From assembly GCA_035476995.1 (NCBI GenBank), contig DATIKY010000344.1, forward strand, positions 4,550 to 68,549: a stretch of 64,000 nucleotides of DNA, given 5' to 3'. The position numbers and the translations under genes are program-made. Within the stretch, counting starts at the first letter, position 1. Each line of letters opens with the position of its first letter. Source of the stretch: Sedimentisphaerales bacterium. Lineage in GTDB: Bacteria; Planctomycetota; Phycisphaerae; Sedimentisphaerales; Anaerobacaceae. The notes under the pieces were generated by a model, which ran no database searches, was not told where the DNA came from, and saw nothing but the letters and a program-made list of their open reading frames with translations. This document shows, piece after piece, positions 1,912 through 58,193 of this stretch.

Positions 1912-1977
1912 CTGTTTCTCCTTTTGTCGTGCCAGTAGACGGAAAACCGAGGACAACTCCATTTCATCCTGTTTTTT

Positions 1978-33131: not shown

Positions 33132-33244
33132 AGTCATCCTCCTAAAAAAAACCAGGACAAATTCCGGGACGTCTGTCCAACGTAGGTCCGGACACGACCA
33201 CCGAAAGACGCACAAGCATCTACAGAAGCCCATCATTTTGAACC

Positions 33245-33273
33245 AGTATACCATGATTACGAAAGGATGTCAA
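33245..33273 (-). promoter_or_regulatory. near-consensus sigma70-type promoter with extended -10 (TTGACA-N17-TGg-TATACT on the minus strand)
   Basis: The minus strand reads TTGACATCCTTTCGTAATCATGGTATACT. On the plus strand this is TGTCAA 33268-33273 and AGTATA 33245-33250. It sits in an AT-rich gap about 110 nt upstream of the PEP-CTERM gene start. Confidence 0.5.
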
Positions 33274-36343: not shown

Positions 36344-36373
36344 TTGTCGCCGAGGCAGTTTATTTGCTACAAT
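36344..36373 (+). promoter_or_regulatory. sigma70-type promoter candidate, TTGTCG-N18-TACAAT
   Basis: TTGTCG at 36344-36349 and TACAAT at 36368-36373. It lies about 70 nt upstream of the ATG of the 1491-aa protein, in the divergent gap shared with epsI. Confidence 0.3.
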
Positions 36374-36443: not shown

Positions 36444-39400
36444 ATGGCAATCAGGCAGTCGAACAGGCATTGTTACGGCGGAGAACGGACCGGTCACACT
36501 ACGCGTCGCTCCGCCCCTTGGCATCACTGCATTCTGCCGCTCCTGCTGATGGGCATGGCGATTCCCGCTCGGGGAGCAACCTATTATCTGAACACCACCA
36601 CCGGCAGCGTCGACAATCCCGGCTCCAACGCCCAGCCGTGGAGAACCCTGGATCAAGTGCAATCCAAGGCCGGGGAAGGCGACACCGTCGTCATCCAGCA
36701 GGCGGATGCAGCGACCTACGCAGCCCTGTGGCCAAGCCACGTCTCCTACCGGGCCGACACGATCCAACAGTTCGGCATCACGTGGAAATTCAGCGATTAC
36801 CGCCCCGTCGGACAGTTCGCCAACGGCGATTTCTGGGTCGTCGGGCCGGTGACCATCGTTGGGATCCTGCCGCAATCGACCTCCGTGGACGGGCGAATCA
36901 TGAACGGGACTATGATCAATCCAAGTCCCAAGGAAAAGTCGCAGGGCTACGACAATTCCATGTATGCCAATACCTATTCGCCAGCATTGAACGTGGCGTT
37001 CAACCGGTCGCCCAGCAACCCACTGGTCGTACAGCCGGGCTCCTCGCTGGTCTCGACCATCAGCATGCCCGGCGCAGGCGTAATTCCGCAGTTGCAGCGA
37101 GCGGCGGTCCTGACGGTTCTGAACGCGCCCGCTCCGACGGGAAGTTTCAGGCCCGCCTACTCCGGCACGGACAAGACGGTTCGGTTCAACAAATCGGACC
37201 TGAACTACGCGATTCTCCGGCGTCTGCCTGCGGTCGCGAATACCCCGACTCTCGGTTCCGTGGAGGCCCTGTTCGCCGCGCCCTGGATCGACCACCAGCC
37301 GGGTTGGCCGCAGAGAATGCAGCACCCCAAACTCAACATGCCGGACTATGGACGCGAAATCCATCGGGACATCGGTATCGGGGGGTTGATGTTGCACCTG
37401 GACTTCACGCCGGAGCAGAAACAGACGCTGATGGTCCGCTACGTCCAACTGGGAGTTGATTTCTACGGAATCGTCAAGGCCGGAGGCACCTGGAACTGGG
37501 TCGGCGAAGGGGGGCACGGAGGGGGCCGCAAATGGCCTATCCTTTTTGCCGGCATGGTCCTCAACGACCTCGATATGAAAGCCATCGGCCAGAAGTCCGG
37601 CAACTATCTGTACAGCAACGGATATGGGCCTGGCAACTCACCTCCCGATTATGTTCATTTCGGCGAGGACGACCAGACCTTCTATGTCTCGGAGTTTGAC
37701 GTTGCCCTGACAAACGGACCCAAGTGGAATCCGGACACGCGTAGCGGTCCTCCTTCCCCCTATCTGCGATCCGACATCGGAATGCCGGAATGGGGTATCG
37801 AGCATTCGCACAATCCGCACAGAAGCGACAAGGCCTTCCATGCGATCTACCGAAATGTGGCTGGCCCTCCCTTCAACGGCACAGCACTGGCTGCGCTCCT
37901 GACGCCGGGGGCGAAGGCCCTGTGGAATCACAACGCCTACTTCGACTACACGGACCGCTATCAGGCGTTCACCGGCCCCGGCGGGGAGTACGCGGGCTAT
38001 TGGCACACATCCAGCGGCTTCGCGGACAGCATGTGGCACGCCTACCGCTCGCTTGGAGGGGCCGTCTGGCCGGCGACCGACGCCGGCGGCGCCCCGGTTC
38101 TATCGCCCATCGGAAATAGGCAGGTCCTGGTGGGCGAGACTCTCACGTTTGTCGCCAGCGCCGCGGGCAACGGGCTGACCTACACCGCCACAGGCCTGCC
38201 CGCCGGAGCGACGTTCACGAACGCGACGTTCGCGTGGACGCCGACGTCCGGCCAGGTCGGCAGTCACCAGGTCACATTCACCGTCAGCGACGGGCAGGCC
38301 CAGGATTCCGAGACGATCACGATCACCGTGTCGCGGCCGAACACGGCGCCTGTCCTGGGCAGCATCGGCGACAAGAGCGTGAACGAGAATCAGGCCCTGA
38401 GCTTCACCGTCAGCGGCACCGACGCCGACGGCGACTCTCTCACGTATTCCGCCACCGGCCTGCCGGGCGGCGCGACCTTCAACGGCCAGACGTTCTCCTG
38501 GACCCCCGGCTTCACGCAGGCGGGGTCCTACTCGGTGACCTTCACCGTCAGCGACGGCAAAGCCCAGGCTTCCAGGACGGTCGCGATCTCGGTCGCCGAC
38601 GTCAACCGGGCGCCCGCCCTGGCGTCCATCGGGGATCGATCGGTCAGCGAGGACAACACGCTGGCTCTGACTCTCTCGGGAACCGATCCGGACGGGACCG
38701 TCCTGACCTACTCGGCCACGGGGCTTCCCGCCGGCGCGACGTTCGCAGGCCAGGACTTCCGTTGGACGCCGGGCGCGGAGCAGGTCGGCTCGCACCAGAT
38801 CACGTTCACCGTCAGCGACGGCTCGCTGACCGCCTCCGAGACGATCGCCGTCATGGTCGTTGGCGCCGGCCCGGACACGGCCGCCCCGGTCGTGGCCAGG
38901 CAATCCCCGGCGCCGGGAACGATCCAGGTGCCGCTGAACAACCTGATCACGTTCCACGTGACCGACGCCGGCAAGGGAGTCAACGTCTCGTCGGTGACCG
39001 TCACGCTGGACGACCAGATCATCTACCAGGGCAACACGCCCCTGTACACCAGCGCCCGGGGCCGGTGTATCCGGTCGGGCTCCAAGAACGACTATCGATT
39101 CACCTATCAGCACAACGATCTGTTCGACTTCGACCATGAGATTCGCATGACGGTCAACGCCGCCGATCTGGCGGGCAACGTCATGAGCCCGACGACGTAT
39201 TCCTTCTCGACCGAGATGCGGACCTTCGCAAGCAACCGTCGCGTCAGCCAGACCGGCGCCCTCGCCAAGGGATCGCCGGCGACGGTGGGCGACGCGGCCG
39301 GCAACATCTGGGCGGCCTGGCACGCGGGTCCCGTCGGCGCCAGGGACATCTTCCTGGCGCGGATGGCCGCGGGCCAGGACGGATTCGATGCCCCAGTCCA

Positions 39401-40919
39401 GATCACGAACCATCCGCTCGATCAGTGCGATCCGGACCTCGCGTTGGCCGACGACCGGACCCTGTACGTGGTCTGGCAGGACAACCGCAAGGGCGATTGG
39501 GACATCTACGCGTCGGTGAGCGCCGACAGCGGGCTGACCTTCTCGAAAGAAACCGCGGTGGTCGACGCCGACGACAATCAGACCGCTGCGGCGGTGGTCG
39601 CCGACGGCGCCTCGCCCAGCCGGGTCTACGTCGCCTGGCAGGACGACCGCAACGGCAATCAGGACATCTACGTCGCCCACTCGGCCAACGCCTTCGCCAG
39701 CGCGACCGTGTCTCGCGTCACGACGAATACCGCTGACCAGACGGAGCCGGACATCGCCGTTGACGCGGGCAACACGGTCTACCTCGTCTGGACCGACAGG
39801 CGAAGCGGACAGGCGGATCTCTACGCCGCGGCTTCAAACGCCTCGTGGACGAACGTCCCGGTGATGACCGACGCCGGCGATCAGACGAGCCCGGCCCTGG
39901 CCGTGACTGCGGGAGGTTCCACCGTCCACCTGCTGTGGGTGAACCGCGTCTCGGGCAATGCGGACGTCTGCTACGCGTCGTCCAACGGCCTTCCTTCGTC
40001 CCCGCTGACCGGCGTGAGCATCATCGACGACACCACCGGCGCCGACCAGACCGCGCCGTCCGTCGCGTGCGACGCCGCGGGCAAAGTCTTCGCCTGCTGG
40101 CAGGACGACCGCAACATCGGCCCGTACGGGGCGGACACCGACGTCTACTTCACCGAACTCAGCGACGGCGCCGTAAAGACGAACGTCCTGCTCGGCGACG
40201 GCGGCGCCCGGGGCAGCCAGACCGAACCGGCCATCGCCCTGAGCACGGACGGCCAGCCTTACATCGTCTGGGCGGATTCCCGCAACTCATCCTCGGATAT
40301 CTACTGCGCCGCGACGACGTATCTGGACTCGACCCCGCTGTATTCGGCCCTGATCAATCCCGACGCACAGACCACGATCGGAACCGCGCCGGCCGCGATT
40401 ACGCGGGCCTCGGACGTCTCGATCGTCGTGCCGGCGGGCGCCTGCCTGAGCAGCGTCCGAGTCAGCATCTCGAAGATTCTCAACCCGATCGTTTCGCCGG
40501 ACGATTGCCTGGGCAGCTATGATTTCGGGCCCAGCGGCATCGAGTTCAGCCAGCCGGTCACGGTGACCATCCCCTACCAGGCCGACGCCGCCAACCGCCA
40601 GGCGCGGGCCTACTGGTACAACTCCCTGACCGGCGCTCTGAGCCAGCAGGGCATCACCGACATCGAGACTATCGCGATCAGCGGCGACCTCTACGCCCTG
40701 CAATTCAAGACCACGCACTTCACGCCGTACTATCTCGTCGCCAGCGATGCGGAGGTCATGGCCTTCGCGGGCGCCGACGGCAACGGCGGCTGTTCCATGT
40801 CCGCCACCGGCGGCGGTTCGCCCAGGCACCTGCTCGTCCCGTACGCCATCGTGGTCGTGTTCATGGCGATCCTGCGGCACAGAGACAGAAGAAGAGCGGC
40901 CGAACGCATCGGATCATGA
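36444..40919 (+). CDS. large secreted multidomain surface protein: unknown N-terminal domain, 3 cadherin/Ig-like repeats, beta-propeller-like repeats, Cys-containing C-terminal sorting-tag-like tail
   Basis: The start was set at ATG 36444 (the ORF-track start at 36156 adds 96 non-protein-like residues). Signal peptide WHHCILPLLLMGMAIPARGA. The three ~85-aa repeats read LTY.ATGLP.GATF....F.WTP...Q.GS..VTFTVSDG. There are 6-7 units of type DQTEPDIAV...VYLVW.D.R.G..DIY. The tail is GADGNGGCSMSATGGGSPRHLLVPYAIVVVFMAILRHRDRRRAAERIGS. Confidence 0.85.
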   Translation: MAIRQSNRHCYGGERTGHTTRRSAPWHHCILPLLLMGMAIPARGATYYLNTTTGSVDNPGSNAQPWRTLDQVQSKAGEGDTVVIQQADAATYAALWPSHVSYRADTIQQFGITWKFSDYRPVGQFANGDFWVVGPVTIVGILPQSTSVDGRIMNGTMINPSPKEKSQGYDNSMYANTYSPALNVAFNRSPSNPLVVQPGSSLVSTISMPGAGVIPQLQRAAVLTVLNAPAPTGSFRPAYSGTDKTVRFNKSDLNYAILRRLPAVANTPTLGSVEALFAAPWIDHQPGWPQRMQHPKLNMPDYGREIHRDIGIGGLMLHLDFTPEQKQTLMVRYVQLGVDFYGIVKAGGTWNWVGEGGHGGGRKWPILFAGMVLNDLDMKAIGQKSGNYLYSNGYGPGNSPPDYVHFGEDDQTFYVSEFDVALTNGPKWNPDTRSGPPSPYLRSDIGMPEWGIEHSHNPHRSDKAFHAIYRNVAGPPFNGTALAALLTPGAKALWNHNAYFDYTDRYQAFTGPGGEYAGYWHTSSGFADSMWHAYRSLGGAVWPATDAGGAPVLSPIGNRQVLVGETLTFVASAAGNGLTYTATGLPAGATFTNATFAWTPTSGQVGSHQVTFTVSDGQAQDSETITITVSRPNTAPVLGSIGDKSVNENQALSFTVSGTDADGDSLTYSATGLPGGATFNGQTFSWTPGFTQAGSYSVTFTVSDGKAQASRTVAISVADVNRAPALASIGDRSVSEDNTLALTLSGTDPDGTVLTYSATGLPAGATFAGQDFRWTPGAEQVGSHQITFTVSDGSLTASETIAVMVVGAGPDTAAPVVARQSPAPGTIQVPLNNLITFHVTDAGKGVNVSSVTVTLDDQIIYQGNTPLYTSARGRCIRSGSKNDYRFTYQHNDLFDFDHEIRMTVNAADLAGNVMSPTTYSFSTEMRTFASNRRVSQTGALAKGSPATVGDAAGNIWAAWHAGPVGARDIFLARMAAGQDGFDAPVQITNHPLDQCDPDLALADDRTLYVVWQDNRKGDWDIYASVSADSGLTFSKETAVVDADDNQTAAAVVADGASPSRVYVAWQDDRNGNQDIYVAHSANAFASATVSRVTTNTADQTEPDIAVDAGNTVYLVWTDRRSGQADLYAAASNASWTNVPVMTDAGDQTSPALAVTAGGSTVHLLWVNRVSGNADVCYASSNGLPSSPLTGVSIIDDTTGADQTAPSVACDAAGKVFACWQDDRNIGPYGADTDVYFTELSDGAVKTNVLLGDGGARGSQTEPAIALSTDGQPYIVWADSRNSSSDIYCAATTYLDSTPLYSALINPDAQTTIGTAPAAITRASDVSIVVPAGACLSSVRVSISKILNPIVSPDDCLGSYDFGPSGIEFSQPVTVTIPYQADAANRQARAYWYNSLTGALSQQGITDIETIAISGDLYALQFKTTHFTPYYLVASDAEVMAFAGADGNGGCSMSATGGGSPRHLLVPYAIVVVFMAILRHRDRRRAAERIGS
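38094..38864 (+). repeat. three tandem ~255-nt coding repeats (cadherin/Ig-like domains) inside the large surface-protein gene
   Basis: The protein repeats start PVLSPIGNRQV.., APVLGSIGDKSV.. and APALASIGDRSV... Each ends ..VTFTVSDG....S.TI.I.V. Confidence 0.8.
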
Positions 40920-41671: not shown

Positions 41672-41895
41672 TTCCTCGCGCGGAGGTGCTTATCGGGGCT
41701 TGCTGAAGTTCCGGACACGCGGGGACCGATAAAACCCTGCCCGACGGAACAAGGCCGACCCACACGGCACAAGCTCCTCGTCCGGCGCCATTCGAATCAA
41801 GTGCATACCCCCACGCGACGATGAACGCTGTGGCAAAACTACGTGCGGGTCTTCCCTGACGCGGGATTTCCCCGGAGGAACCCCATCGGAAGAGG

Positions 41896-42753
41896 GTGTC
41901 AATGAACGAGAAACGAGTCATTCGAGTCGTCTGGCTGGTCAAGGCTTCCCTCGTGGCCGCGTTGGTCTACGGCGGCTTTCGCGCCGCCATGGACCACCTG
42001 CACGTCGCGGCGTTCGACCCGGCCGCCGCGGTCGGCGAGGAACCTCTGCCGGACGCCGGTCCGGAGGCGACCGGTCCCCGATCCTCCGCGGACTATGAGG
42101 GAATTCTCCAGAGCAACCTGTTCTCCGCGACGGACCCGCGGAAGGTTCAGGCCCTGGATTCCATGCCCTCGGCGGAGGAACTGGGCCTGCGTCTGGTGGG
42201 CTCCATCGCCGGCGGACCGGCCATTTCCCGAGCCAATATCCAGGACACCAAAGGCAAAACCACCGGCGTGTACCGAATCGGCGACACCGTCGCCTCGGCC
42301 ACGATCGAAGCCATCCAGCAGGACGCGGTCGTGCTCCGGCACGAAGGCCGTCAGTTGATCCTGCGGCTGCGAACCGGGACCGCCGGAGGCGAGACGCCTT
42401 CTTCCGGGTCCATGCTTCCAACGACTCCCGAGAAGGCCCCGACCCCGGCCCAGAAGGCGGCGATGCCCCCGGTCAAAGCCGACTACGTCGCGGAGGTCTT
42501 TCGCAAGGCGACCATCGAACCCTATGTGAAAAACGACCGGACCGAGGGTCTGCGAATCACCGGTCTGGACAAAATCCCCATGGCCGAACTGTTCGGCCTG
42601 CGAAACGGCGACGTCATCCGAAAAGTCAACGGCCAGCAACTGACGAGCAAACAGAAGGCGTTCCAGGTCCTGATGAAAGCCCGGACGCAATCGAAGGTGG
42701 ATATTGAACTGTTACGCAACGGCAAAAGCAAAGATCTGTCATTCGGTCTCTAG
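41896..42753 (+). CDS. gspC: type II secretion system protein C (GspC, TM anchor + PDZ domain)
   Basis: N-terminal anchor VVWLVKASLVAALVYGGF. An HR-like segment reads LRLVGSIAGGPAISRANIQDTKGKTTGVYRIGDTVASATIEAIQQDAVVL. The C-terminal PDZ region reads GLRITGLDKIPMAELFGLRNGDVIRKVNGQQL. It lies immediately upstream of gspD. The start could instead be ATG 41902. Confidence 0.75.
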   Translation: MSMNEKRVIRVVWLVKASLVAALVYGGFRAAMDHLHVAAFDPAAAVGEEPLPDAGPEATGPRSSADYEGILQSNLFSATDPRKVQALDSMPSAEELGLRLVGSIAGGPAISRANIQDTKGKTTGVYRIGDTVASATIEAIQQDAVVLRHEGRQLILRLRTGTAGGETPSSGSMLPTTPEKAPTPAQKAAMPPVKADYVAEVFRKATIEPYVKNDRTEGLRITGLDKIPMAELFGLRNGDVIRKVNGQQLTSKQKAFQVLMKARTQSKVDIELLRNGKSKDLSFGL

Positions 42754-42757
42754 CACG

Positions 42758-44995
42758 ATGGAGGGCACCGTGAACCCACAACCTCTTCGCAACCCAAGGC
42801 AGCCTCGCGGCAATGCGCCGCACGGACGCCGAACCGCCCTGTTGACGCTGACGGTCCTGGTCCTGACCGCCGCGACGGGCTGCCAGACGCAGAAGGAAAA
42901 CGCATCCGCTTCGTCAGTCCCCGTGCCGCAGAGGGAGCGACTCGGGCAAAGTCCCACGGTCCCTGCCGTCGAACCGGCGCGCGTCGAGCCCGCCCCTGCG
43001 ACCCAGCGCATCACCGGCGCGTCCCCGAAAGACAGCCCCAGCCGCCGATGGCTGACCGAAGAAGTCGTCAGTCCCGTCGAGTTCGGCTCGCCCCAGCCCC
43101 CGGCCAAAACGCCCAAACCCGTGGAGCTCGTCGCGGTCCCGTCGCAGCCGCCCCTGCAACCGCAGGCGGCGGTCCCGCCTCAAGCCATGCCTTCGCTGAG
43201 GCCGGGCATGGCCGACGAGCCCGTTTCCGTGAACTTCGACAATGTCGACATCCGCACGGTCCTCAAGACCATCGGCGACATCACCGGCATCAACTTCATT
43301 CCGCATGAAAGCGTCACCGGCAACGTCACCGTGATGTCTCCGACTCCGATCCGGCTGGGCGACCTCTACGCCTTCCTGCAGTCGATCCTCGACGTGCGCG
43401 GCTACGCCACGATCGAGATGGACAACGCGGTCAAGGTGGTGCCCAAGGCCGACGCGGCCCGACACCACTTGCAGGTTCGGATCGGCGCCGACCCGGCCTT
43501 CATCCCGAAGGTCGACATGGTCGTCACGCAGATCATGCCGCTGAAGTACGCGGACGCCGACGAAGTCCGCCAGATCATCGAACCCATCATCTCGACCGGC
43601 GCACAACTGGCGACGTATCCGCGGACCAACTCCCTGATGATCACCGACACCTCCGCGAACATCCGTCACATCGCGCAGGTCGTTCAGCAGCTCGACGTCG
43701 AAGGTTCGCAGGAAAAGGTGCTGACGTTCCCGTTGACCCACGCGTCGGCCCGAGTGCTCAGCGAACAGATCACGCGGATCCTGGAGAGAAACCGCAGCGC
43801 GGGCCCCCAGACCGGTCGCATTTCGCCCGGCGGCGGGATGACCGGCGCAAGGATACTCCCCGACGACCGGACCAACTCGCTGATCGTCATCGCCGGCGAG
43901 CAGAACACCGAGATGATCCGTGGCCTCGTCGAACAGCTCGACATTCAACGACCCGTCGGCGTCAACAACGTCCACGTGGTGTACCTCAAGAACGCCGACG
44001 CCAACGAGGTGGGCCGCTCGCTCGACCAGGCCATGGCGGGTATGAAGCTGGCCGGGGCGGTCGAGGCTTCCCAGCAGGTCCAGATCACGCCCGACCCGAG
44101 CACCAACGCCCTGGTCGTGGTGGCCTCGCCGCAGGATTTTGAGGTGGTCTCGCAGATCATCGAGAAGCTCGACATCGTTCGCGACCAGGTGCTGGTCGAG
44201 ATGCTGATCCTCGAGATCACGGAGGAATCGCTTCGAGAGATCGGCATCGACTGGGCCACGCTCGACAACGCGGTGGCCGACAGCGTGCGAGGCTTCGGCA
44301 TGACCAATCTCGGCCCGCGCGTGGACTTCCTCAGCGGAACCTCCGAAGGGCTCAACGTCGGCGCCTGGCGAGGAGGCGCCGGCGGCGCGCAGATCGGCGC
44401 CATCCTCCATGCCCTGCAGAAACAATCGGGCGTCAACATCCTCTCGACGCCGTCGATCCTGACGTCGAACCACCGCAAGGCCCAGATCATCGTCGGCGAG
44501 AACCGCCCGTTCGTCACCGAGTCCCGGATCACCGAGAGCACCGATCCGATCAACCCGACGGTCATCAAAAGCTTCGAATACAAGGACGTGGGCATCACGC
44601 TGGACATCACGCCGCACGTCAGCCAGGGCGGCCTGATCCGACTCGAAATCGACAGTGAGTTCACCAAGCTCATCGAGGACGTCACGACCCTCTCGATCGA
44701 CACCCCCGCCACCGCCAAGCGTACCGCCCAGACGGTCGTCACGATGGGCAGCGGCGCGACGGTCGTCATCGGCGGTCTGATCCGCGACGACACGACCCAC
44801 GCGGTCAAGAAGATCCCCCTGTTCGGGGACTTGCCCCTGGTCGGGTCGATGTTCCGCTCGGAGCGAAACCGAACGCAGAAGACGAACCTCCTGCTGTTCA
44901 TCACGCCGCACGTGATGTCGACCCAGGAGGATCTGGTCAACATGAGCGAGAGAAAGAGGCAGGAAATGACCTTGGCCCAGCCAAAGGACAACTGA
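42758..44995 (+). CDS. gspD: type II secretion system secretin GspD, with lipoprotein-type signal and Pro-rich N-terminal extension
   Basis: The start was set at ATG 42758, 4 nt after the gspC stop. LLTLTVLVLTAATGCQTQ is lipobox-like. The N0 domain reads VSVNFDNVDIRTVLKTIGDITGINFI. The secretin core reads ILSTPSILTSNHRKAQIIVGENRPF and ATVVIGGLIRDD....KKIPLFGDLPLVGSMFRS. Confidence 0.9.
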   Translation: MEGTVNPQPLRNPRQPRGNAPHGRRTALLTLTVLVLTAATGCQTQKENASASSVPVPQRERLGQSPTVPAVEPARVEPAPATQRITGASPKDSPSRRWLTEEVVSPVEFGSPQPPAKTPKPVELVAVPSQPPLQPQAAVPPQAMPSLRPGMADEPVSVNFDNVDIRTVLKTIGDITGINFIPHESVTGNVTVMSPTPIRLGDLYAFLQSILDVRGYATIEMDNAVKVVPKADAARHHLQVRIGADPAFIPKVDMVVTQIMPLKYADADEVRQIIEPIISTGAQLATYPRTNSLMITDTSANIRHIAQVVQQLDVEGSQEKVLTFPLTHASARVLSEQITRILERNRSAGPQTGRISPGGGMTGARILPDDRTNSLIVIAGEQNTEMIRGLVEQLDIQRPVGVNNVHVVYLKNADANEVGRSLDQAMAGMKLAGAVEASQQVQITPDPSTNALVVVASPQDFEVVSQIIEKLDIVRDQVLVEMLILEITEESLREIGIDWATLDNAVADSVRGFGMTNLGPRVDFLSGTSEGLNVGAWRGGAGGAQIGAILHALQKQSGVNILSTPSILTSNHRKAQIIVGENRPFVTESRITESTDPINPTVIKSFEYKDVGITLDITPHVSQGGLIRLEIDSEFTKLIEDVTTLSIDTPATAKRTAQTVVTMGSGATVVIGGLIRDDTTHAVKKIPLFGDLPLVGSMFRSERNRTQKTNLLLFITPHVMSTQEDLVNMSERKRQEMTLAQPKDN

Positions 44996-45041
44996 TGTTC
45001 CGAGCGGGCCTTCGCCGGGCGCCGGCAGAAATCTTCAGACG

Positions 45042-46661
45042 GTGAGATCCCAGGGGAGCCAGGGAGTGATCGAACGGACAGACAACCGACAGCGGCATCC
45101 GATCCGCCCCGAGCAACTGAGCTCGGAGTTGATGCGACGACTGCCCCTTGAGTTTCTCAAGAGGCAACGGGCGATCCCCATCCTCCTGGAGAAGAATGAG
45201 CCGGCGGTGGCGTTGGCCGATCCGCTCAATATCGGCGCCTACGACGCGATCGTGGGCATCCTGGGCCGGCCCTGCCGCCGGGTCCTTTGCGAGCCGTCCG
45301 AGATCGAACAGGCGATCAGCCGATGCTACTACCTCAGCCCCGGCGAGGAAGACAACTACTTCACGCCCGATGCGCCGGAGTCGTCGGGACAAACCGACGC
45401 GCCCGCGTCGTCCGTCCAGGACCTCGCCAGCAGCGTCCAGACGCGGGCGGAGGACCTGCTCAACATCGCGGACAAGGCGCCCGCGATCAAGCTGGTCAAC
45501 AAGATCCTGTTCCACGCGGTGCACAGCCGGGCCAGCGACATCCACATCGAGCCCTACGAGCAGGAGGTGAAGATCCGTTTCCGCGTCGACGGCGTCCTGC
45601 GGAACATCCTGAGCCTGCCGAAGATCCAGGTCAGCCCGATCCTCTCGCGGCTCAAGATCATGGCCAATCTGAACATCGCCGAGCACCGCCTGCCCCAGGA
45701 CGGACAGAGCCGCGTCAGCATCGGCGACGAGGTCGTCGATATCCGCGTCTCGGTGATTCCCACCGCCGGCGGCGAGCGGGTCGTGCTGCGACTGCTCGAC
45801 AAGGGACGAGGCGAGCTGAAGCTCGAAGAGATCGGCTTCGGACCGGACCTGCTCAAGACGTTCCGCAGCCTGATCGCGGTCTCGCACGGGATCGTCCTGA
45901 TCACCGGCCCGACCGGCAGCGGCAAAACCACGACGCTCTACGGCGCCCTGAATGAGCTCAACAGCCAGGAACGGAACATCCTGACCGTCGAAGACCCGGT
46001 CGAGTACCAGTTGCCCGGCGTCGGCCAGATGCAGGTGCATCCGAAGATCGACCTGACGTTCGCCAGTTGCCTGCGTCACATCCTCCGCCAGGACCCGGAC
46101 ATCATCATGATCGGCGAGATTCGCGACCGCGAGACCGCCGAGATCGCAATCCAGGCCTCGCTGACCGGGCACCTCGTGCTGAGCACCCTGCACACGAACG
46201 ACGCCGCCTCGGCCTTCACGCGCCTGATCGACATGGGGATCGAGCCCTACCTGATCTCCTCGACCGTCGTCGGCGTGATGGCCCAGCGGCTGGTTCGCGT
46301 GATCTGCCCGAGCTGCAAGCAGCCGCACACGCCGCAGGAGGGAACGGTCTCCTGGAGCGAGTTGGAGAAAATCGCCACGGGATTCATCCGGTTGCACAAA
46401 GGCGCCGGCTGCGAGAAGTGCCTCGACAGCGGGTACAGGGGCCGCACCGGCATCTTCGAGCTGCTGCTCGTCGACGACCCGATCCGGGACATGATCGTCC
46501 GGCGGCAGGCGTCCCACGTCATCAAGGAAGCGGCCGTCCGGCACAGCATGACGACCCTGAGAAACGACGGACTGCGGCGGGCCCTGGAGGGAGCCACCAC
46601 GCTGGAAGAGGTCTATCGCGTGACGCAGGACAGCGTGCAGATCGGACTGGAGGGAAACTGA
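45042..46661 (+). CDS. gspE: type II secretion ATPase GspE
   Basis: Walker A is GPTGSGKTTT and Walker B is DPDIIMIGEIRD. Also LTGHLVLSTLHTND and a tetra-Cys motif CPSCKQ...CEKC. An alternative in-frame GTG start lies at 45066, with GGGGAG upstream. Confidence 0.9.
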   Translation: MRSQGSQGVIERTDNRQRHPIRPEQLSSELMRRLPLEFLKRQRAIPILLEKNEPAVALADPLNIGAYDAIVGILGRPCRRVLCEPSEIEQAISRCYYLSPGEEDNYFTPDAPESSGQTDAPASSVQDLASSVQTRAEDLLNIADKAPAIKLVNKILFHAVHSRASDIHIEPYEQEVKIRFRVDGVLRNILSLPKIQVSPILSRLKIMANLNIAEHRLPQDGQSRVSIGDEVVDIRVSVIPTAGGERVVLRLLDKGRGELKLEEIGFGPDLLKTFRSLIAVSHGIVLITGPTGSGKTTTLYGALNELNSQERNILTVEDPVEYQLPGVGQMQVHPKIDLTFASCLRHILRQDPDIIMIGEIRDRETAEIAIQASLTGHLVLSTLHTNDAASAFTRLIDMGIEPYLISSTVVGVMAQRLVRVICPSCKQPHTPQEGTVSWSELEKIATGFIRLHKGAGCEKCLDSGYRGRTGIFELLLVDDPIRDMIVRRQASHVIKEAAVRHSMTTLRNDGLRRALEGATTLEEVYRVTQDSVQIGLEGN

Positions 46662-46662
46662 G

Positions 46663-47847
46663 ATGCCCGTGCTGGAATCGGACTTCATGAACGACGTGCG
46701 GAGAGAGGCCGCCGCAGCCCGGCGACAAGCCCATCGGCCTGTCTCACCGGCCAGGCCCGGCAACGACATCCTGCGGCGGGCCGGCACGAAGGACCTGTGC
46801 CGGATCGCGAGGCAACTGTCGGCCCTGCTGCACGCGGGAATGCCCCTGGTGCCTGCGATGTCGGCCCTCGTCGAGCAGTTGGAGTGCCCCACGAACGCCA
46901 GGAGCGGGTCGTCCTCGCTGCGTAAGAAACCGCTCGTCCAGGCGATTCGGCAAGTCCGGGACGACGTGAACGAAGGCATGAGCATGGCCGAAGCCCTGGG
47001 CCGGCACCCCGGCGTGTTCTCGCCGCTGTTCGTCAGCATGGTCTCGGCCGGCGAGAGCAGCGGAGCCCTGGAGGAGGTGCTCGCACGCATCGCCGACATC
47101 CTGGAGAAACGAGTCCAGCTCGTCGGCAAGGTCAAAGCCGCGATCACGTACCCCACGGTCATGGCGACCGTGGCCGCGGCGGTCGTGGTGTTCCTGATCT
47201 CCTACGTGGTGCCCGGCATCACGCGGCTGTTCACCCAGATGAATCACGCGCTGCCCTGGCCGACGCGGTTTCTGATCTCGGTCAGCGAGTTCTCGCAGAC
47301 GTACCTCATGGTCTTTCTCGGCCTGTTCTGCGCAGCGGTGATCGGCCTGGCAGCCCTGCGACGGAACCGCGAAGGCAAGGCCTGGCTGGACCGCATCGTC
47401 CTGAAGCTGCCCTTGTTCGGTCCCCTGCTGTTCCGGCTGGAGCTGGCCCGACTGACGCGGACGCTGGGCACGCTGATGAAGAGCGGGTTGCCGGTGATGG
47501 CGGCGATGGAGATCACCCAGCGGGTGATTCAGAACAGCCTGATCGCGGAGGCGATGAAGACGATTCGCGAGTCCGTGCACAAAGGGGACAACATCGCCGG
47601 AGCGATGAAGACCACCGGCCTGTTCCCCCCGGTCGTATACCACCTGATCGCGACCGGCCAGATGTCCGGCAACATCGAGGACGGAATGATCGACATCGCC
47701 GAGATGTACGACGGCGAGGTCGAAGCCTCCGTGCGGACGCTCACCTCGCTCCTGGAGCCGGTGATTCTGCTGGTCATGGGAGGCATCGTGACGTTCATCG
47801 TGCTGGCGATTCTGTTGCCGATCTTCGAAATCAATCAAGCCTTGTGA
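46663..47847 (+). CDS. gspF: type II secretion inner-membrane platform protein GspF
   Basis: It has two GspF-type repeats (RQLSALLHAGMPLVPAMSAL; RTLGTLMKSGLPVMAAMEIT) and three TM helices. The C-terminus EPVILLVMGGIVTFIVLAILLPIFEIN is typical. The ATG lies 1 nt after the gspE stop. Confidence 0.9.
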   Translation: MPVLESDFMNDVRREAAAARRQAHRPVSPARPGNDILRRAGTKDLCRIARQLSALLHAGMPLVPAMSALVEQLECPTNARSGSSSLRKKPLVQAIRQVRDDVNEGMSMAEALGRHPGVFSPLFVSMVSAGESSGALEEVLARIADILEKRVQLVGKVKAAITYPTVMATVAAAVVVFLISYVVPGITRLFTQMNHALPWPTRFLISVSEFSQTYLMVFLGLFCAAVIGLAALRRNREGKAWLDRIVLKLPLFGPLLFRLELARLTRTLGTLMKSGLPVMAAMEITQRVIQNSLIAEAMKTIRESVHKGDNIAGAMKTTGLFPPVVYHLIATGQMSGNIEDGMIDIAEMYDGEVEASVRTLTSLLEPVILLVMGGIVTFIVLAILLPIFEINQAL

Positions 47848-47866
47848 CAAGTAAGGACGTTTGAGT

Positions 47867-48316
47867 ATGAACCAATCACCAATCATCAATCATCAATCAT
47901 CCATGCCCAAGGGGTTCACCCTGATTGAGCTGATGATCGTCGTGGTCATCCTGGGCTTACTGGCGACGACCGTGATGCCCAAGATCCTGAGCAGGCCGGA
48001 CCAGGCTCGCCAGACCAAGGCCACCGTCGACATCCGCGCGATTCAGTCCGCCCTGGCGATGTTCAAGACCGACGTCGGACGCTTTCCCACGACGGCCGAG
48101 GGCTTGCAGGCGCTCGTCGCCAATCCCGGACTCAAGGGGTTCAACAGCGACGGCTACCTCGAGCGAGTGCCCGCCGATCCCTGGGGAAATCCGTACATCT
48201 ACATCAGCCCCGGCCTGCACAGCAAGGATTACGATCTGAAGTCCCTGGGCAAGGACGGCGAAGACGGCGGCACAGACAAAGACGCCGACATCGAAAGCTG
48301 GAACCTCCAGGGCTAG
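47867..48316 (+). CDS. gspG: type II secretion major pseudopilin GspG
   Basis: The prepilin signature is KGFTLIELMIVVVILGLLA. The GspG core reads DIRAIQSALAMFKTDVGRFPTTAEGLQALV ... DPWGNPYIY. ATG 47867 has AAGGA 9 nt upstream and gives a 16-aa leader. The alternative start ATG 47903 gives a 4-aa leader. Confidence 0.9.
   Translation: MNQSPIINHQSSMPKGFTLIELMIVVVILGLLATTVMPKILSRPDQARQTKATVDIRAIQSALAMFKTDVGRFPTTAEGLQALVANPGLKGFNSDGYLERVPADPWGNPYIYISPGLHSKDYDLKSLGKDGEDGGTDKDADIESWNLQG
47871..47905 (+). repeat. tandem heptanucleotide repeat (A[C/T]CAATC x4, plus a degenerate fifth copy) at the 5' end of gspG
   Basis: ACCAATC ACCAATC ATCAATC ATCAATC ATCCATG, read directly. The last copy contains the ATG at 47903. 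Confidence 0.8.
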
Positions 48317-48348
48317 ACGCGGGAAACCGTCGGCAACGAGGAGGGACG

Positions 48349-48762
48349 ATGAAACCCAGGCATGCCAAAGCCTTCACGCTGATCGAGACGGTCGCAGCTC
48401 TGGCGATCGTCTCGATCGCTTTGCTCGGACTGCTGCAATTGAACCTGACCAGCATCCGGGTGGCGGACAAGGCGCAGACGACCGCCCGGGCGGTGTTTGT
48501 CGCCCAGGAGAAGATGGCCGAGACGCTGGAGTCGGGATTTCCCCCGGTTGGAACGCGCTCCGGCGTCGTGGAAAGCGGCGAGGGACGGTTCGCTTGGCGC
48601 GCCGAGGTGACCGACGCCTCCGGATCGCAGCAACGATCCCTGGGCGTGCGGCTCGACCGCCTGCGGAAACTCTCGGTCGAGGTCGCCGCCGGGGACAACC
48701 CCGCCAACAGCCCCGTCCGACTGACCACCTACGTTGCGGAGAGGAAGATCCGTGCACTGTAG
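48349..48762 (+). CDS. gspI: type II secretion minor pseudopilin GspI
   Basis: The prepilin N-terminus is KAFTLIETVAALAIVSIALLGLL. The size (137 aa) and the segment ARAVFVAQEKMAE are GspI-like. Confidence 0.7.
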   Translation: MKPRHAKAFTLIETVAALAIVSIALLGLLQLNLTSIRVADKAQTTARAVFVAQEKMAETLESGFPPVGTRSGVVESGEGRFAWRAEVTDASGSQQRSLGVRLDRLRKLSVEVAAGDNPANSPVRLTTYVAERKIRAL

Positions 48763-49456
48763 AGCCGCACAGAAAGCGTTCACCCTGATCGAGATGCTGG
48801 TCTCGCTGGCGATCGTCGCGTCCATCGTCACGATGGTCTACGGCAGCTACGCGGCCACCGCCCGGTCTCTGGACGTCTACGGCTCCCGCATGGCGTGCTC
48901 GGAACGCGCGCATCTGGCGCTTCGCATGATGGCCCGCCAGATCCGCTGCGCGTACCTGCCCCCGACCGCTGCGCACCCGACCCAAACGGATGTCGGACGC
49001 ACGATCAAGCCTGCGGAACCCGCCGCTGCGTTCTACGCCGAACCCGCGGCCTTGCGCAGCGATCTCCTGAGCTTCGTCACGACAGGCGGATTCGACCTCG
49101 GGTTGGACAGACCCATGGGGATCTCCCGCATTGCGTACCGCTACGAAGATGCGCAAGACACCCTGCTGATCGGCTGCGAGCCCTTCGTCCAACGCACAAA
49201 CACCCTGCAGGAGACCGGCGTCTGGCGGCCGATCCTGACCGGCCTGACGGAAATCGAACTGAAGTTCCACGATGGGAAACAATGGCAGACCGCCTGGGAT
49301 TCGAGGAGGGCCGGACGATTGCCGCATGCGGTCCGGATCGCGATCGGCGTCGCGGATCGCCAGGGGCTCGTGCATCGCTATGCGACGACGGTCCCCGTCG
49401 CATGCGCAAGCGTTTCTCGCGGACAACCAACCAGGGCCCCGAGCAAACAGCCATGA
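48752..49456 (+). CDS. gspJ: type II secretion minor pseudopilin GspJ
   Basis: GTG 48752 gives VHCRAAQKAFTLIEMLVSLAIVASIV. The assignment rests on size and on its position between gspI and gspK. It overlaps gspI by 11 nt. Confidence 0.65.
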   Translation: MHCRAAQKAFTLIEMLVSLAIVASIVTMVYGSYAATARSLDVYGSRMACSERAHLALRMMARQIRCAYLPPTAAHPTQTDVGRTIKPAEPAAAFYAEPAALRSDLLSFVTTGGFDLGLDRPMGISRIAYRYEDAQDTLLIGCEPFVQRTNTLQETGVWRPILTGLTEIELKFHDGKQWQTAWDSRRAGRLPHAVRIAIGVADRQGLVHRYATTVPVACASVSRGQPTRAPSKQP

Positions 49457-50442
49457 CACGAACCCGCACAGGTCACAGACAAGGCGGCTTCATCCTCGTC
49501 GTCGTGCTCGGGGCGGTCCTGGTGCTATCGAGCCTGCTGTTCGGCTTCAACCTGACGGCCCGCACGCGGCTGAATTCAGCCGACAGTTTCCACCGGACCG
49601 AACAGGTCGGCGCCGCCGCACGGGCCGGGATTGAGATCGCGATCGCCGCCATTCGGGACGTCAACGACCTCGGCGCGGACCCGCGATTCTCCAGCCTTCT
49701 GACCGGGGGCAACTCGTTCCTCATCGACGACGCCAACTGCTCCGTCACGGTCAGCGACGAAAGCGGGCTGCTGAACGTCAACCATCTCAAGACCGCCGAC
49801 GGGCAACTGAATCGACCGGTCATCGACCAGTTTCTGCGACTGATCGATCTGGTGAACGCCCAACAGGACCGTTCCGAGCGAATCGGCTACGGCGTCGTCC
49901 CCTCCCTGATCGACTGGATCGATTCCGACGACGAAGTGACGCGTCTGCCGTTCATCCAGCGGGAGAACACCGGTACCGAGGACGATCACTACCAGGCCCT
50001 GCCCCGACCGTACGCCTGCCGCAACCGACCGCTCGACACGGTGGACGATCTGCTCTGGGTCAAAGGCGTCACGCCCGAGGCGTTCAACCGGCTGCGGCCC
50101 TTCCTGACCTGCGTCGGCGACGGCAAGATCAACGTCAACGCCGCGCCGAAACTCGTCCTCCAGTCGCTCTCGGAGCAGATGGACGGCGCGGTCGCCCAGA
50201 TGATCCTCAACCAGCGCAGGATCAAGCCGTTCGCAAACGTCGCGCAGCTCCGAAGCCTGCCCGGAATGACCGATAATGTCTACCGGGCGATTAAAGACCG
50301 CATCTGCGTGCGTCCCCAGGACCGATTCTACCGCGTTCTCTCGCGGGCCGGCCTGGCCGACCGCACGCGCGCAGCCGAAGCGTTGCTCAGAAGAAACACG
50401 CAGGCCGGAACGGTCGATATGATTCTATACCGGGAACTGTAG
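49453..50442 (+). CDS. gspK: type II secretion minor pseudopilin GspK
   Basis: ATG 49453 overlaps the gspJ stop (ATGA). The hydrophobic N-terminus GGFILVVVLGAVLVLSSLL lacks the Glu+5. Other GspK-like segments are SGLLNVNHL, LDTVDDLLWVKGVT and KINVNAAPKLVLQSL. Confidence 0.75.
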   Translation: MTRTRTGHRQGGFILVVVLGAVLVLSSLLFGFNLTARTRLNSADSFHRTEQVGAAARAGIEIAIAAIRDVNDLGADPRFSSLLTGGNSFLIDDANCSVTVSDESGLLNVNHLKTADGQLNRPVIDQFLRLIDLVNAQQDRSERIGYGVVPSLIDWIDSDDEVTRLPFIQRENTGTEDDHYQALPRPYACRNRPLDTVDDLLWVKGVTPEAFNRLRPFLTCVGDGKINVNAAPKLVLQSLSEQMDGAVAQMILNQRRIKPFANVAQLRSLPGMTDNVYRAIKDRICVRPQDRFYRVLSRAGLADRTRAAEALLRRNTQAGTVDMILYREL

Positions 50443-50460
50443 AGACGCCGAGGACGCGTC

Positions 50461-51981
50461 TTGGCCCCCCGGCGACCCTTTGCAGGAGGTGAAGGCATCA
50501 GAACGCCCAAGAAATGCATCGGAATCGAGATCGGACGCAACCACGTCCGAGCCGCGCAGATCGCTCGGACCGCGGAGGGTCTTTGCCTGGAGAAAACTCT
50601 CGCCACGCAAACCCGACGGAGCACCGATTCGCCGTCGGCGATTCTCCGCTCGCTGATCCAGGACCACGGCTTCGACCCGCGGGCCGACGTCGCGGTGTCT
50701 CTGCCTTCCCACACGTTCTTCTTCGCGGACATCCAGACCGACGCGGCCGGGCTGGCGGCGCTCCAGGCGGGCGACGCGTCGAGTCTGCGAGACTGTTTCC
50801 CCATTCCGACTGAGGAGGCGGTCACCCAGGTCTGCACCGCCCTGCCTTCTCCGGACGGACGCCATTCTCTGCTGGTGGCCGCCACGTCGTGCGACCAGTT
50901 TGCCGCGCACCTGGCCTCGCTCGACGAAGCCAGGATCAAGCCGGTGCGAGTGGACTGCCCGACGATCGCCGGCCAGGCCGCGATCGCCGCGAACCATCCG
51001 GCCGCGATTCAAGGGCGGGCGGCCGTCCTGTACGTGGACGAATCCACGATCAACCTCGCCGCGACGCAGGACGGCTATCTGCTGCTCGTCCGCACCCTGC
51101 CGATGCTCTCCAGCGAAACGCAGAACCTCGAAACGGTCGTCCAGCAGACCGCGGAGATCCTCGCCCAGGAGATCGAGATCACCTGGAGACGGCTCTTTCA
51201 CAGCGACCCCGAAGCCGGCCTGTACATCTTCCTGATCGCCTCGGGCCGGATGGCGGAGCTTCTCCCGCCCGCGATGGGCGAGAAAATCAACAGCCGGATC
51301 GTGCCGGTTAATCCGTGCGTGAACGTCATCCGGTCGGCAGCGGCCGACGCGGACTCGGCCCTGTGTGTCGCAGAGGGCCTAGCCCTGCGGACGCTCCAGC
51401 CGCAGGCGACGAGCCGAACCGATTTCCTCAAGGCCTATCGGACCCGGACCCAGCCGGCCGTGCGGGTGCGCCGGGAGATGGCCATCTGCGGCGGCCTCGC
51501 TGCGGCGGCGGTGGCCATCTGGGTGATCGGCCTGTTCCTCCAGCTCTCGTCGCTGGAGTCGCAGTACACCAAGCTCAGAGAGCAGGAAAGAGCGACCTTC
51601 CTCCGCGCTGTCCCCGAGGAGCGCACCGTCGTCAATCCCGCGGCGCAGCTCCAACAGAAGCTCGACGCCCTCCGCAAAGACTGCGAGCTGTTCGCCGGCT
51701 TCAACCCGAACCAGCCCGGCCCGCTGGAGGTCCTGGCCACGCTGAGCCGGCAGATCCCCGCCTCGGGCAATCTGCGACTGCACGAGATGCTGATCGCCGG
51801 GGGCTCCATTCGGATCACCGGCACCTGCGATTCGTTCGCCACGTTCGGCGACTGGCAGCGGATTCTCGAAAACACGCCGGGACTCAGGCTCGTGGACGCT
51901 CCGCAGCCGCAAAGACGACCCGAATCGCAAAAGGTGGAGTTCAAGATCTCGCTGTCCACAACGGAGAAGAAGGCATCATGA
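50461..51981 (+). CDS. gspL: type II secretion assembly protein GspL (PilM-like cytoplasmic domain + TM + periplasmic domain)
   Basis: CIGIEIGRNHVRAAQI is an actin-like/PilM N-terminus. It has a single TM helix ICGGLAAAAVAIWVIGLFLQL and a periplasmic C-domain. It lies between gspK and gspM. The TTG start at 50461 is uncertain, as there is no in-frame ATG or GTG nearby. Confidence 0.65.
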   Translation: MAPRRPFAGGEGIRTPKKCIGIEIGRNHVRAAQIARTAEGLCLEKTLATQTRRSTDSPSAILRSLIQDHGFDPRADVAVSLPSHTFFFADIQTDAAGLAALQAGDASSLRDCFPIPTEEAVTQVCTALPSPDGRHSLLVAATSCDQFAAHLASLDEARIKPVRVDCPTIAGQAAIAANHPAAIQGRAAVLYVDESTINLAATQDGYLLLVRTLPMLSSETQNLETVVQQTAEILAQEIEITWRRLFHSDPEAGLYIFLIASGRMAELLPPAMGEKINSRIVPVNPCVNVIRSAAADADSALCVAEGLALRTLQPQATSRTDFLKAYRTRTQPAVRVRREMAICGGLAAAAVAIWVIGLFLQLSSLESQYTKLREQERATFLRAVPEERTVVNPAAQLQQKLDALRKDCELFAGFNPNQPGPLEVLATLSRQIPASGNLRLHEMLIAGGSIRITGTCDSFATFGDWQRILENTPGLRLVDAPQPQRRPESQKVEFKISLSTTEKKAS

Positions 51982-52532
51982 TCCAGATCAACCCACGGGA
52001 ACGAAACCTGGCGATCGGCGTGGTCGCCCTGCTGGTCGTGTTCGCGGCCTGGACGGCGGTCTTCCGACCCGCCCGGGAACGCATCCGGACCCTCGAACGC
52101 ATCCTCCCCGAGAAACGAGATCAGGTGCGACAGCTTCAGGCCCAAAGCGTCGAATACCAGACTCTGGCGAACCAGTTCAAAGGCCTGCGGGCGCGAATCG
52201 CCTCCCAGGACCCTGGATTCCAGCTGCCTCGATTCCTCGAAACGATGATCAGCCGGCACAAGCTGGACGCCCACGTCACGAAGATGCAGCCCGGCGTCGT
52301 ACAGGTCCGCCCGGACTACTCCGAGACGGTGGTCACGATCGAGCTCCAGGACATCGCCCCGCGACAGCTCGTCGCATTCCTTACCGAGGTCGACACCGCC
52401 GAGGCGGTCGTCCGCGTCGGCAGCCTCTACTTCCGCACCGACGCCACGAACGAGGCCCTGCTCGACGCCACCGTGGAAATCTGCAGCCCCCGGCTGACCG
52501 CCGACACGACGCAGGTCGCCCAGGGTTCCTGA
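51978..52532 (+). CDS. gspM: type II secretion protein GspM
   Basis: ATG 51978 overlaps the gspL stop (ATGA). The protein is 184 aa with one N-terminal TM helix (LAIGVVALLVVFAAWTAVF). Size and position are those of GspM. Confidence 0.65.
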   Translation: MIQINPRERNLAIGVVALLVVFAAWTAVFRPARERIRTLERILPEKRDQVRQLQAQSVEYQTLANQFKGLRARIASQDPGFQLPRFLETMISRHKLDAHVTKMQPGVVQVRPDYSETVVTIELQDIAPRQLVAFLTEVDTAEAVVRVGSLYFRTDATNEALLDATVEICSPRLTADTTQVAQGS

Positions 52533-55205: not shown

Positions 55206-55239
55206 AGGGCGGCATAGTACGTATAGGACGGATGGGATC

Positions 55240-58190: not shown

Positions 58191-58193
58191 AGT

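Follow-up and report, generated by a model that had tools for sequence, protein, structure and literature searches.

Does a gene block in which a large tagged protein and a CPBP-family intramembrane protease lie side by side with a type II secretion system (T2SS) encode one pathway for display on the cell surface? We addressed this question for a 64,000-nt stretch of DNA (hereafter the window; ~63% G+C) from contig DATIKY010000344.1 of a Sedimentisphaerales bacterium (assembly GCA_035476995.1). The initial annotation of the window had interpreted the block as a self-contained pathway of Sec export, C-terminal processing or lipidation by the CPBP enzyme, and T2SS-dependent delivery to the surface; as a whole, this interpretation was partly supported. 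With moderate confidence, we propose that the block encodes a dedicated, myxosortase-type system for C-terminal sorting in Phycisphaerae-like planctomycetes, which is genetically coupled to a T2SS operon. What we observed directly were the gene content, the conserved synteny, the catalytic motifs, the fold similarity, and a conserved tag that is confined to one protein family. Family identities were taken from Pfam and NCBIfam profile scans of the window proteins with curated cut-offs.

The open reading frame (ORF) calls and the family scans agreed with the initial annotation on gene order and extent (36444-52532, all on the plus strand; Table 1). The tagged protein, hereafter the cargo, is followed by the CPBP gene, a spacer, and gspC-D-E-F-G-I-J-K-L-M (41896-52532). 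The spacer had the reported length of 224 nt, and the reported ATGA overlaps were found at gspJ/gspK (49453) and gspL/gspM (51978). A third ATGA overlap, not mentioned there, joins cargo and CPBP at 40916 and implies translational coupling of these two genes. The T2SS had been called complete, which holds for its core but not for the whole set, as gspH, gspN and gspO are missing from the block. Nor is the block self-contained as first proposed: its left side is not closed, and a conserved, divergent EpsI-like gene belongs to the neighbourhood. This partner had been missed, as had the confinement of the tag to one protein family and a ZU5/GAIN-like domain with an H-F-T sequence before the tag.

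Table 1. Features of the window, with positions in the window or, where marked aa, in the cargo protein; profile scores are in bits and are followed by the cut-off of the model.
Feature	Position	Strand	Evidence and remarks
Three small proteins with [IV]IPAPGA-hydrophobic-GWL(R/K)RR tails	32478-33254, 3409-4026, 1321-1962	-	
EpsI-like (DUF3485) membrane-anchored protein	35260-36051	-	Pfam PF11984, 51 vs 26
Sigma-70-like promoter match TTGTCG-18-TACAAT with TG	36344-36373	+	~70 nt before cargo ATG; consensus only
Cargo, 1491 aa	36444-40919	+	Signal-peptide-like N-terminus; head, aa 40-575; C-terminal tag
Cargo head domain	36561-38168, aa 40-575	+	AlphaFold model, pLDDT 87, pTM 0.88
Cargo He_PIG Ig repeats, three	aa 572-806	+	Family scan
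Cargo Big_5	aa 811-923	+	Family scan
Cargo propeller-like repeats	aa 1008-1225	+	Family scan
Cargo ZU5/GAIN-like beta-sandwich	40329-40745, aa 1296-1434	+	Pfam ZU5, 21.9 vs 21
Sorting tag	40785-40916	+	GG-C(aa 1450)-S-M-S, 11-aa spacer, LLVPY, transmembrane helix, RHRDRRR tail
CPBP/Rce1-like intramembrane glutamic protease, myxosortase-like, 251 aa	40916-41671	+	Pfam PF02517, 66 vs 22
CPBP against NCBIfam core and larger subtype scores			Mrt_core NF040914, 74.6 vs 100; MrtP, 75.3 vs 250; MrtC, 72.2 vs 195
CPBP against further NCBIfam subtype models			MrtS, 67.3 vs 130; MrtJ NF033192, 52.4 vs 75; MrtZ, 44.2 vs 325; MrtX, 43.1 vs 180
Conserved non-coding spacer, 224 nt	41672-41895	+	Probable promoter/operator of the gsp operon
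Spacer motif TTATCGG	41690-41696	+	+18 from CPBP stop
Spacer motif CCGATAA	41726-41732	+	Family form GCC[GT]ATAA at +54 from CPBP stop
Spacer motif TCAAGT-N14-GACGATGAA	41797-41825	+	Third conserved block
gspC	41896-42753	+	C-terminal PDZ; Pfam T2SSC and PDZ; best NCBIfam model GspC_delta, 126.5 vs 150
gspD, secretin	42758-44995	+	TIGR02517, 472 vs 351
gspE, ATPase	45042-46661	+	TIGR02533, 646 vs 630
gspF, platform protein	46663-47847	+	TIGR02120, 361 vs 424; Pfam T2SSF, two
gspG, major pseudopilin	47861-48316	+	TIGR01710, 163.6 vs 88.85
gspI, minor pseudopilin	48349-48762	+	Pfam T2SSI and N_methyl
gspJ, minor pseudopilin	48734-49456	+	Pfam T2SSJ and N_methyl
gspK	49453-50442	+	NF037980, 135.5 vs 130; ATGA overlap with gspJ
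gspL	50461-51981	+	Pfam GspL_C and PilN
gspM	51978-52532	+	Pfam T2SSM; ATGA overlap with gspL

We compared 21 orthologous loci, 19 from genomes (L001-L019) and two derived from metagenomes (L081/82 and L083/84), which were retrieved through CPBP itself and have CPBP identities of 40-93%; flanks of up to 10 kb were examined. The closest CPBP relatives were in metagenome-assembled genomes (MAGs) of Sedimentisphaerales/Phycisphaerae. In 18 of the 20 informative loci, gspC-D-E-F-G-I-J-K-L followed CPBP directly and on the same strand, so the synteny check that the initial annotation had asked for came out positive for CPBP and gspC. The check had included the cargo as well. Its tagged homologue lay directly upstream of CPBP in 14 of 19 loci; this link is frequent but not obligatory. 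Upstream sequence was long enough in 13 loci, and 10 of these had an EpsI-like gene there on the opposite strand. Such an arrangement greatly exceeds what chance would give, as it is found again in relatives in which the intergenic DNA can no longer be aligned. When tagged proteins were taken as the starting point instead (L085, L086, L087 and L089), the arrangements were more mixed. For example, in L086 (1-16356) a tagged cargo of 3451 aa directly follows gspM, so that the order is changed while the partners are the same; the T2SS there has two pseudopilin genes between gspG and gspJ. L089 was a weak match and looked unrelated.

The catalytic motifs of the CPBP family, EExxxR, FxxxH and HxxxN, were invariant in 26 orthologues of the protease (AEEVFFRGY, FALAH and FHGLAN), which supports its core membership in the family. 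The seven best NCBIfam matches were the myxosortase core model and myxosortase subtype models (Table 1), in line with the sorting protease that had been suggested at first, but every score was below the curated Mrt cut-off. For this reason, we call the protein myxosortase-like and give it no subtype name. A cognate tripartite signal with a Cys, as expected for a myxosortase, was present: the adjacent ORF was tagged in the 14 loci mentioned above, and its Cys was invariant. In a survey with the core model, members were found only in Myxococcota and Bradymonadales (10.1101/2023.06.07.544157), and planctomycetes are mentioned neither in that study nor in the MrtX paper (PMC11980579).

The consensus of the tag is a Gly run, C-[SA]-[MILV]-S, ~11 aa, L-x-P-Y, a hydrophobic transmembrane (TM) helix, and R/K-x-R-D-x-R. 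Among the tails from 13 loci, the Cys, the Ser at +3 and the Pro were invariant. An alignment of 22 C-terminal sequences had invariant Cys, Pro and Tyr, and the Tyr was invariant or nearly so across both alignments. Exactly one tagged ORF per locus was found in the 20-kb loci, and none in 61 unrelated CPBP loci. None of the NCBIfam sorting-signal models matched the tag, even at E up to 10. The parallel with MYXO-CTERM that had been drawn in the initial annotation did not hold for the tag itself, which scored at most 8.0 bits against TIGR03901 (cut-off 20). It also failed as JDVT-CTERM (NF033191; 7.1 bits, cut-off 27) and as PEP-CTERM, with no PEP-like motif before the TM helix and no TIGR02595 match in the tail scans.

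A word-indexed database search with the tag returned 19 short fragments in which the architecture was not visible, and was replaced by a profile search run exhaustively against 1.84 billion representative proteins. This search gave 173 clusters, in which the match was at the C-terminus or at most ~50 residues from it, bar a few repeat-type matches. Nearly all the longer matches had a stalk with Big_5, propeller-like and ZU5-like domains; the Ig region was present in about half and the head in about ten. The tag marks one protein family with exchangeable heads. Its C-[SA]-[MILV]-S box resembles eukaryotic CaaX boxes such as CSIM of prelamin A and CVLS of H-Ras. This likeness would fit Rce1-type cleavage directly behind a lipidated Cys. 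Current annotation models lack the tag, and adding it would improve the annotation of Phycisphaerae MAGs.

Our reading of the block as a dedicated sorting system rests on these results together: the frequencies at which gspC and the cargo adjoin CPBP, and the cargo after gspM in L086; the overlap of cargo and CPBP, the top matches to Mrt models and the invariant catalytic motifs; and the tripartite tag with its invariant Cys, present once per locus. That one tag corresponds to one stalk family fits a system of one enzyme and one substrate family, like JDVT-CTERM/MrtJ. In further support, the closest GspC model is GspC_delta, and there is a precedent in MrtX, where MYXO-CTERM is cleaved and surface display needs the T2SS (PMC11980579). 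In the pathway that we propose, the cargo would be exported by Sec and retained in the inner membrane by the TM helix of its tag, with the Arg-rich tail in the cytoplasm. The invariant Cys, in its CaaX-like box after a flexible Gly run, would be lipidated, and the adjacent, translationally coupled CPBP would cut just after the lipidated Cys. The lipid-tethered cargo would then be handed to the T2SS encoded immediately downstream and be displayed on the outer surface. The divergent EpsI-like protein would probably take part as an accessory factor.

Among the closest known systems, MYXO-CTERM/MrtX of Myxococcus xanthus (Sah 2020; Haft 2023/24; Guo, Haft and Wall 2025, PMC11980579) also has a CPBP/Rce1-like glutamic protease and a tripartite signal in which an invariant Cys is followed by a TM helix and an Arg-rich tail. 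The GspC of the window is closest to the GspC_delta model (NF041515). The proposed order of lipidation, cleavage and T2SS-dependent display is the same. However, MYXO-CTERM has a GCGC-type motif and no Pro or charge in the TM segment, whereas the window tag has a single Cys, a spacer of ~11 aa and a P-Y that is invariant where the TM helix begins. MYXO-CTERM also has dozens of substrates, in contrast to the apparently single substrate family of the Planctomycetota system. None of the MrtX targets shares an operon with the protease (10.1101/2023.06.07.544157). Here, the cargo, the protease and the T2SS are contiguous, and the phylum is Planctomycetota.

JDVT-CTERM/MrtJ has been described as a dedicated, co-operonic pair (10.1101/2023.06.07.544157). 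The likeness lies in the single target per locus, co-oriented with and adjacent to CPBP (again in 14 of 19 loci here), in the single invariant Cys, and in the conserved Pro near or within the TM helix. The differences are that the tag fails NF033191 and the protease fails the MrtJ model, that the cargo family and the taxa are others, and that the conserved neighbourhood here also includes a T2SS operon and an EpsI-like gene. In Synerg-CTERM/MrtS (Haft), a Cys tag, a CPBP protease and a divergent T2SS were linked by phylogenetic profiling, whereas here they are physically adjacent; that system has many substrates, which the planctomycete system does not appear to have. The Synerg-specific T2SS models did not match the T2SS subunits of the window beyond a weak match to GspC (28.5 bits vs 200). 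The GlyGly-CTERM/rhombosortase/T2SS system of Vibrio (VesB) shares tag removal by an intramembrane protease, a lipid-type anchor and T2SS-dependent display, but its enzyme is a rhomboid rather than a CPBP protease and its motif is GG rather than Cys. The PEP-CTERM/exosortase (EpsH)/EpsI system (Haft 2006, PMC1569441) shares the EpsI-family neighbour, the position at the edge of an exopolysaccharide (EPS) locus and the tripartite signal. Unlike that system, the window has a tag without a PEP-like motif and an adjacent enzyme that is a CPBP protease and not an exosortase, and the unit also occurs away from EPS genes (L081).

The logic of the pathway was known already from Myxococcus (PMC11980579), and dedicated protease-target pairs from JDVT-CTERM. 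Novel here are the tag, the subfamily of the protease and the phylum in which it occurs, the physical coupling, conserved among loci, to T2SS and EpsI, and the ZU5/GAIN-like module beside the anchor. Myxosortase-type sorting has been shown experimentally only in Myxococcus, where the protease, the dozens of targets and the T2SS lie scattered. One client family, the protease, the T2SS operon and the EpsI-like gene in one neighbourhood provide a compact set for reconstitution and a short list of candidates for the missing steps.

The core of the T2SS (GspD, GspE, GspF, GspG and GspC/L/M) was present. GspD, GspE, GspG and GspK exceeded NCBIfam equivalog cut-offs, whereas GspC, GspF, GspI, GspJ, GspL and GspM were under the NCBIfam cut-off but over the Pfam thresholds (T2SSC, T2SSF, T2SSI, T2SSJ, GspL_C/PilN and T2SSM). 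The full set of H-I-J-K and GspO was not found: only 32 nt separate gspG from gspI, with no gspH, the block has no gspN, and a prepilin peptidase gene (gspO) was identified neither in the block nor elsewhere in the window. The convergent orientation of the following gene (52610-53854) makes gspM the last gene of the gsp operon. The start of gspD is more likely the ATG at 42758, 5 nt past the gspC stop, than the TTG at 42704 that gives the longest ORF. In the N-terminus of GspD (42758-43160), a signal sequence is followed by a lipobox-like LTAATG-C and then by a Pro/Ala-rich linker of ~130 aa before the N0 domain. GspD may be a lipoprotein secretin that pilots itself; a pilotin gene is absent.

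The spacer between CPBP and gspC was compared across L001-L014, L081 and L083, and its length was ~150-225 nt in most loci. The offsets of its motifs (Table 1) from the CPBP stop were fixed, and the 71-nt distance between the last two was gap-free in at least 12 loci, while the sequence between them had diverged. The third motif has the family form T[TC]AAGT-N14-GACGATAGA at +125 from the CPBP stop and a promoter-like geometry of two hexamer-like blocks 17 nt apart. We do not claim a sigma-54 reading of this block, as the spacing is one off and the conservation weak. A scan that was not tuned to planctomycetes found no terminator-like or sigma-70-like match in the spacer. A structured RNA or riboswitch in the 224 nt was rejected, with no Rfam match in the window and zero consensus pairs in RNAalifold on 10 aligned spacers.

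The spacing-invariant conserved motifs make it probable that the gsp operon has its own promoter, for independent or additional transcription. The initial annotation had named a terminator or independent regulation as what would separate CPBP from the gsp genes; the first is not seen in the spacer, but conserved promoter-like motifs are. The hexamer TTATCG/CGATAA occurs again in the EpsI-cargo intergenic region (~2 copies, 8 of 9 loci), and the window as a whole contains more copies of it than expected. Its presence upstream of both cargo and gspC possibly reflects control of the cargo and the gsp operon by the same regulator. The sigma-70-like match before the cargo (Table 1) lies in a region where such matches are no more numerous than in shuffled sequence.

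Several observations weigh against a dedicated sorting system. The protease is below every curated Mrt cut-off, and membership of the tag in a described sorting signal had to be rejected because no NCBIfam model matches it. CPBP is alone in L005, with no T2SS within 10 kb, and the T2SS is inverted in L008. The CPBP-T2SS pair is kept without a cargo in L003, L015, L081 and L083, together with EpsI in L003, L081 and L083; by this persistence, the protease has a closer tie with EpsI and the T2SS than with the cargo. In L085, EpsI and a cargo are followed by a truncated CPBP remnant (13296-13616, aa 22-129 only) and then by FGE-sulfatase genes, with no T2SS. In L087, the cargo belongs to an EPS locus in which EpsI and an exosortase are its neighbours, and within 8 kb there is no CPBP. 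The promoter-like motifs in the spacer suggest separate transcription of the gsp genes, which weakens the idea of a single transcript but not the functional link. For lipidation, cleavage and T2SS dependence, our proposal draws on Myxococcus and Vibrio only (PMC11980579; 10.1101/2023.06.07.544157). In addition, this T2SS may be the cell's only, general-purpose T2SS.

The last point belongs to the alternative that survives best, in which CPBP processes the cargo tail and the T2SS is a general secretion machine, their adjacency being inherited gene order in a cell-envelope/EPS region. In that case, the cargo would be no more than one substrate among many of the T2SS, or would not pass through it at all. 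This could explain why the gsp set is an ordinary core T2SS with spacer motifs that indicate a promoter of its own, why the CPBP-T2SS pair persists in the cargo-less loci, why the L085 and L087 cargos are far from any T2SS, and why a single T2SS is seen within the window. We consider it unlikely, however, because the genes are still adjacent where protease identity is down to 40%, even though the flanks beyond EpsI vary from locus to locus, and because the cargo of L086 now lies at the opposite end of the gsp operon, a move that is hard to account for unless linkage is selected. Moreover, related Cys-tag systems and GlyGly-CTERM need a T2SS (10.1101/2023.06.07.544157).

A second alternative arises from the EpsI-like gene and what lies beyond it. 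The encoded protein scored 34.6 bits against NCBIfam EpsI_fam (under the cut-off of 42.8) and matched the C-terminal part of XrtD. The gene, divergent from the cargo, is the last one of a large exosortase EPS locus on the minus strand (1-36051), and no other upstream neighbour of the CPBP-T2SS unit is as constant. The EPS locus encodes an exosortase with an N-terminal sugar-nucleotidyl/hexapeptide transferase fusion (13959-16076), a tyrosine-kinase chain-length determinant, a 1468-aa TPR protein, a Wzx-like flippase, many GT2/GT4 proteins, two UDP-glucose dehydrogenases, DegT and RmlD. The three small proteins with IPAPGA tails (Table 1) are presumably substrates of this exosortase.

CPBP might thus work with EpsI and the exosortase/PEP-CTERM-EPS machinery, or on T2SS components, and not on the cargo, whose tail would either anchor it permanently in the inner membrane or be processed by a different enzyme, for example an exosortase. 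EpsI stays when the cargo is missing, the L087 cargo has EpsI and an exosortase but no CPBP beside it, and the left half of the window is entirely an exosortase EPS locus. Fusions of exosortase and CAAX protease are known (PMC1569441), and CPBP aligns with the PEP-CTERM-associated CAAX protease model TIGR03008 over nearly its full length, though weakly (31.8 bits). The Mrt models, however, score more than twice as high (~75 vs 32 bits), and the tag, with its invariant Cys, lacks a PEP-like motif. The IPAPGA...RRR tails of the window are a different signal. Since the exosortase of the window presumably has its own, different substrates in the proteins with these tails, the cargo is not taken to be one of them. 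The ATGA overlap also ties CPBP to the cargo. In L081, EpsI-CPBP-T2SS lies among housekeeping genes with no EPS genes or exosortase nearby; therefore, this unit does not depend on an EPS locus. We regard this second alternative as distinctly improbable, and the EpsI-like protein may serve the CPBP system rather than the exosortase.

That the adjacency is functionally meaningless, a product of descent within one clade and of biased sampling, is highly improbable: all loci come from one class-level lineage and were retrieved via CPBP, and L005, L008, L085 and L087 are exceptions, but intergenic DNA has diverged past alignment except at the motifs, the flanking genes differ, L086 has an alternative order with the same partners, cargo and CPBP are translationally coupled, and a functional pairing that matches the tag and the protease family is already known.

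The cargo of the proposed sorting system has a further feature next to its tag. The ZU5/GAIN-like region was modelled by AlphaFold with pLDDT >90. In a Foldseek search, it matched ankyrin ZU5 (E 1.6e-4, prob 1.0, TMt 0.55-0.63), next the GAIN domains of BAI3, CELSR1 and BAI2, and then UNC5b, in agreement with a ZU5/GAIN fold. The sequence H-F-T (aa 1425-1427, nt 40716-40724) is in the turn between the last two strands (190-199 and 202-208 in the model), where H-[FL]-[ST] would be expected. Its His is invariant in the family, with HFT, HFS, HLT and HLS as variants. GAIN domains cleave at HL/T or HL/S before the last strand. PIDD self-cleaves at HF/S immediately past its ZU5 domains, and the fragments stay associated (PMC3210808). 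By analogy, the cargo domain probably self-cleaves at H-F/T, a candidate site of cis-autoproteolysis.

The autoproteolytic ZU5 domains (PIDD, UNC5CL and the FIIND of NLRP1/CARD8) and the GAIN/GPS of adhesion G-protein-coupled receptors (GPCRs) have the same beta-sandwich fold as the cargo domain, H-[FL]-[ST] in the turn before the last strand and, as in the cargo, a membrane tether right after the domain. The cargo differs from them in being bacterial and extracytoplasmic, in a predicted lipid-Cys tether in place of seven TM helices or a death domain, and in that its self-cleavage is predicted. After such cleavage, the ectodomain would be held non-covalently on a lipid-anchored stub of the last beta-strand, the Gly linker and the lipid-Cys. 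The presence of a ZU5/GAIN-like domain beside a lipid-anchor tag suggests self-cleaving tethers on bacterial surfaces, a possible new role.

These features can be combined into a larger proposal, which is speculative and to which we give only tentative credence. EpsI-like protein, CPBP and T2SS would form a self-contained display machine with a dedicated T2SS and a single polymorphic client family, which would self-cleave at H-F/T and carry interchangeable heads held non-covalently on the lipid-anchored stub; the EpsI-like protein would act in Cys lipidation or hand-over. If this is true, the client would be a bacterial counterpart of the adhesion-GPCR/PIDD architecture.

The head of the cargo had more than 1500 homologues, mostly Planctomycetota/Omnitrophota proteins of ~550 aa with Flg_new or dockerin tails. 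It represents a large uncharacterised family of extracellular domains. The head model had no match in the PDB (best E 0.5). We assigned no function from the structure, which shows a faint likeness to alpha/alpha-toroid glycosidases/lyases and a 45-residue pectate-lyase-like N-terminal cap.

In the EPS locus, the IPAPGA tails are PEP-CTERM-like, nearest in style to VPLPA-CTERM, and no NCBIfam or Pfam model recognises them. The segments 11637-13940 and 5373-9779 (minus strand) were also noted as parts of this locus. A 530-aa ORF (33487-35079, minus strand) was considered as a lipid transferase and rejected: its sequence looks like that of a multi-TM, Wzx-type flippase, and its L085 counterpart has MatE/Polysacc_synt matches. 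On the other side of the block, the convergent gene at 52610-53854 encodes a PQQ-like beta-propeller. Beyond it, 54141-63772 (plus strand) encodes a MoxR AAA ATPase, a DUF58/VWA protein and three large ORFs; this region resembles Bat/aerotolerance-type operons and is unrelated to cargo-CPBP-T2SS.

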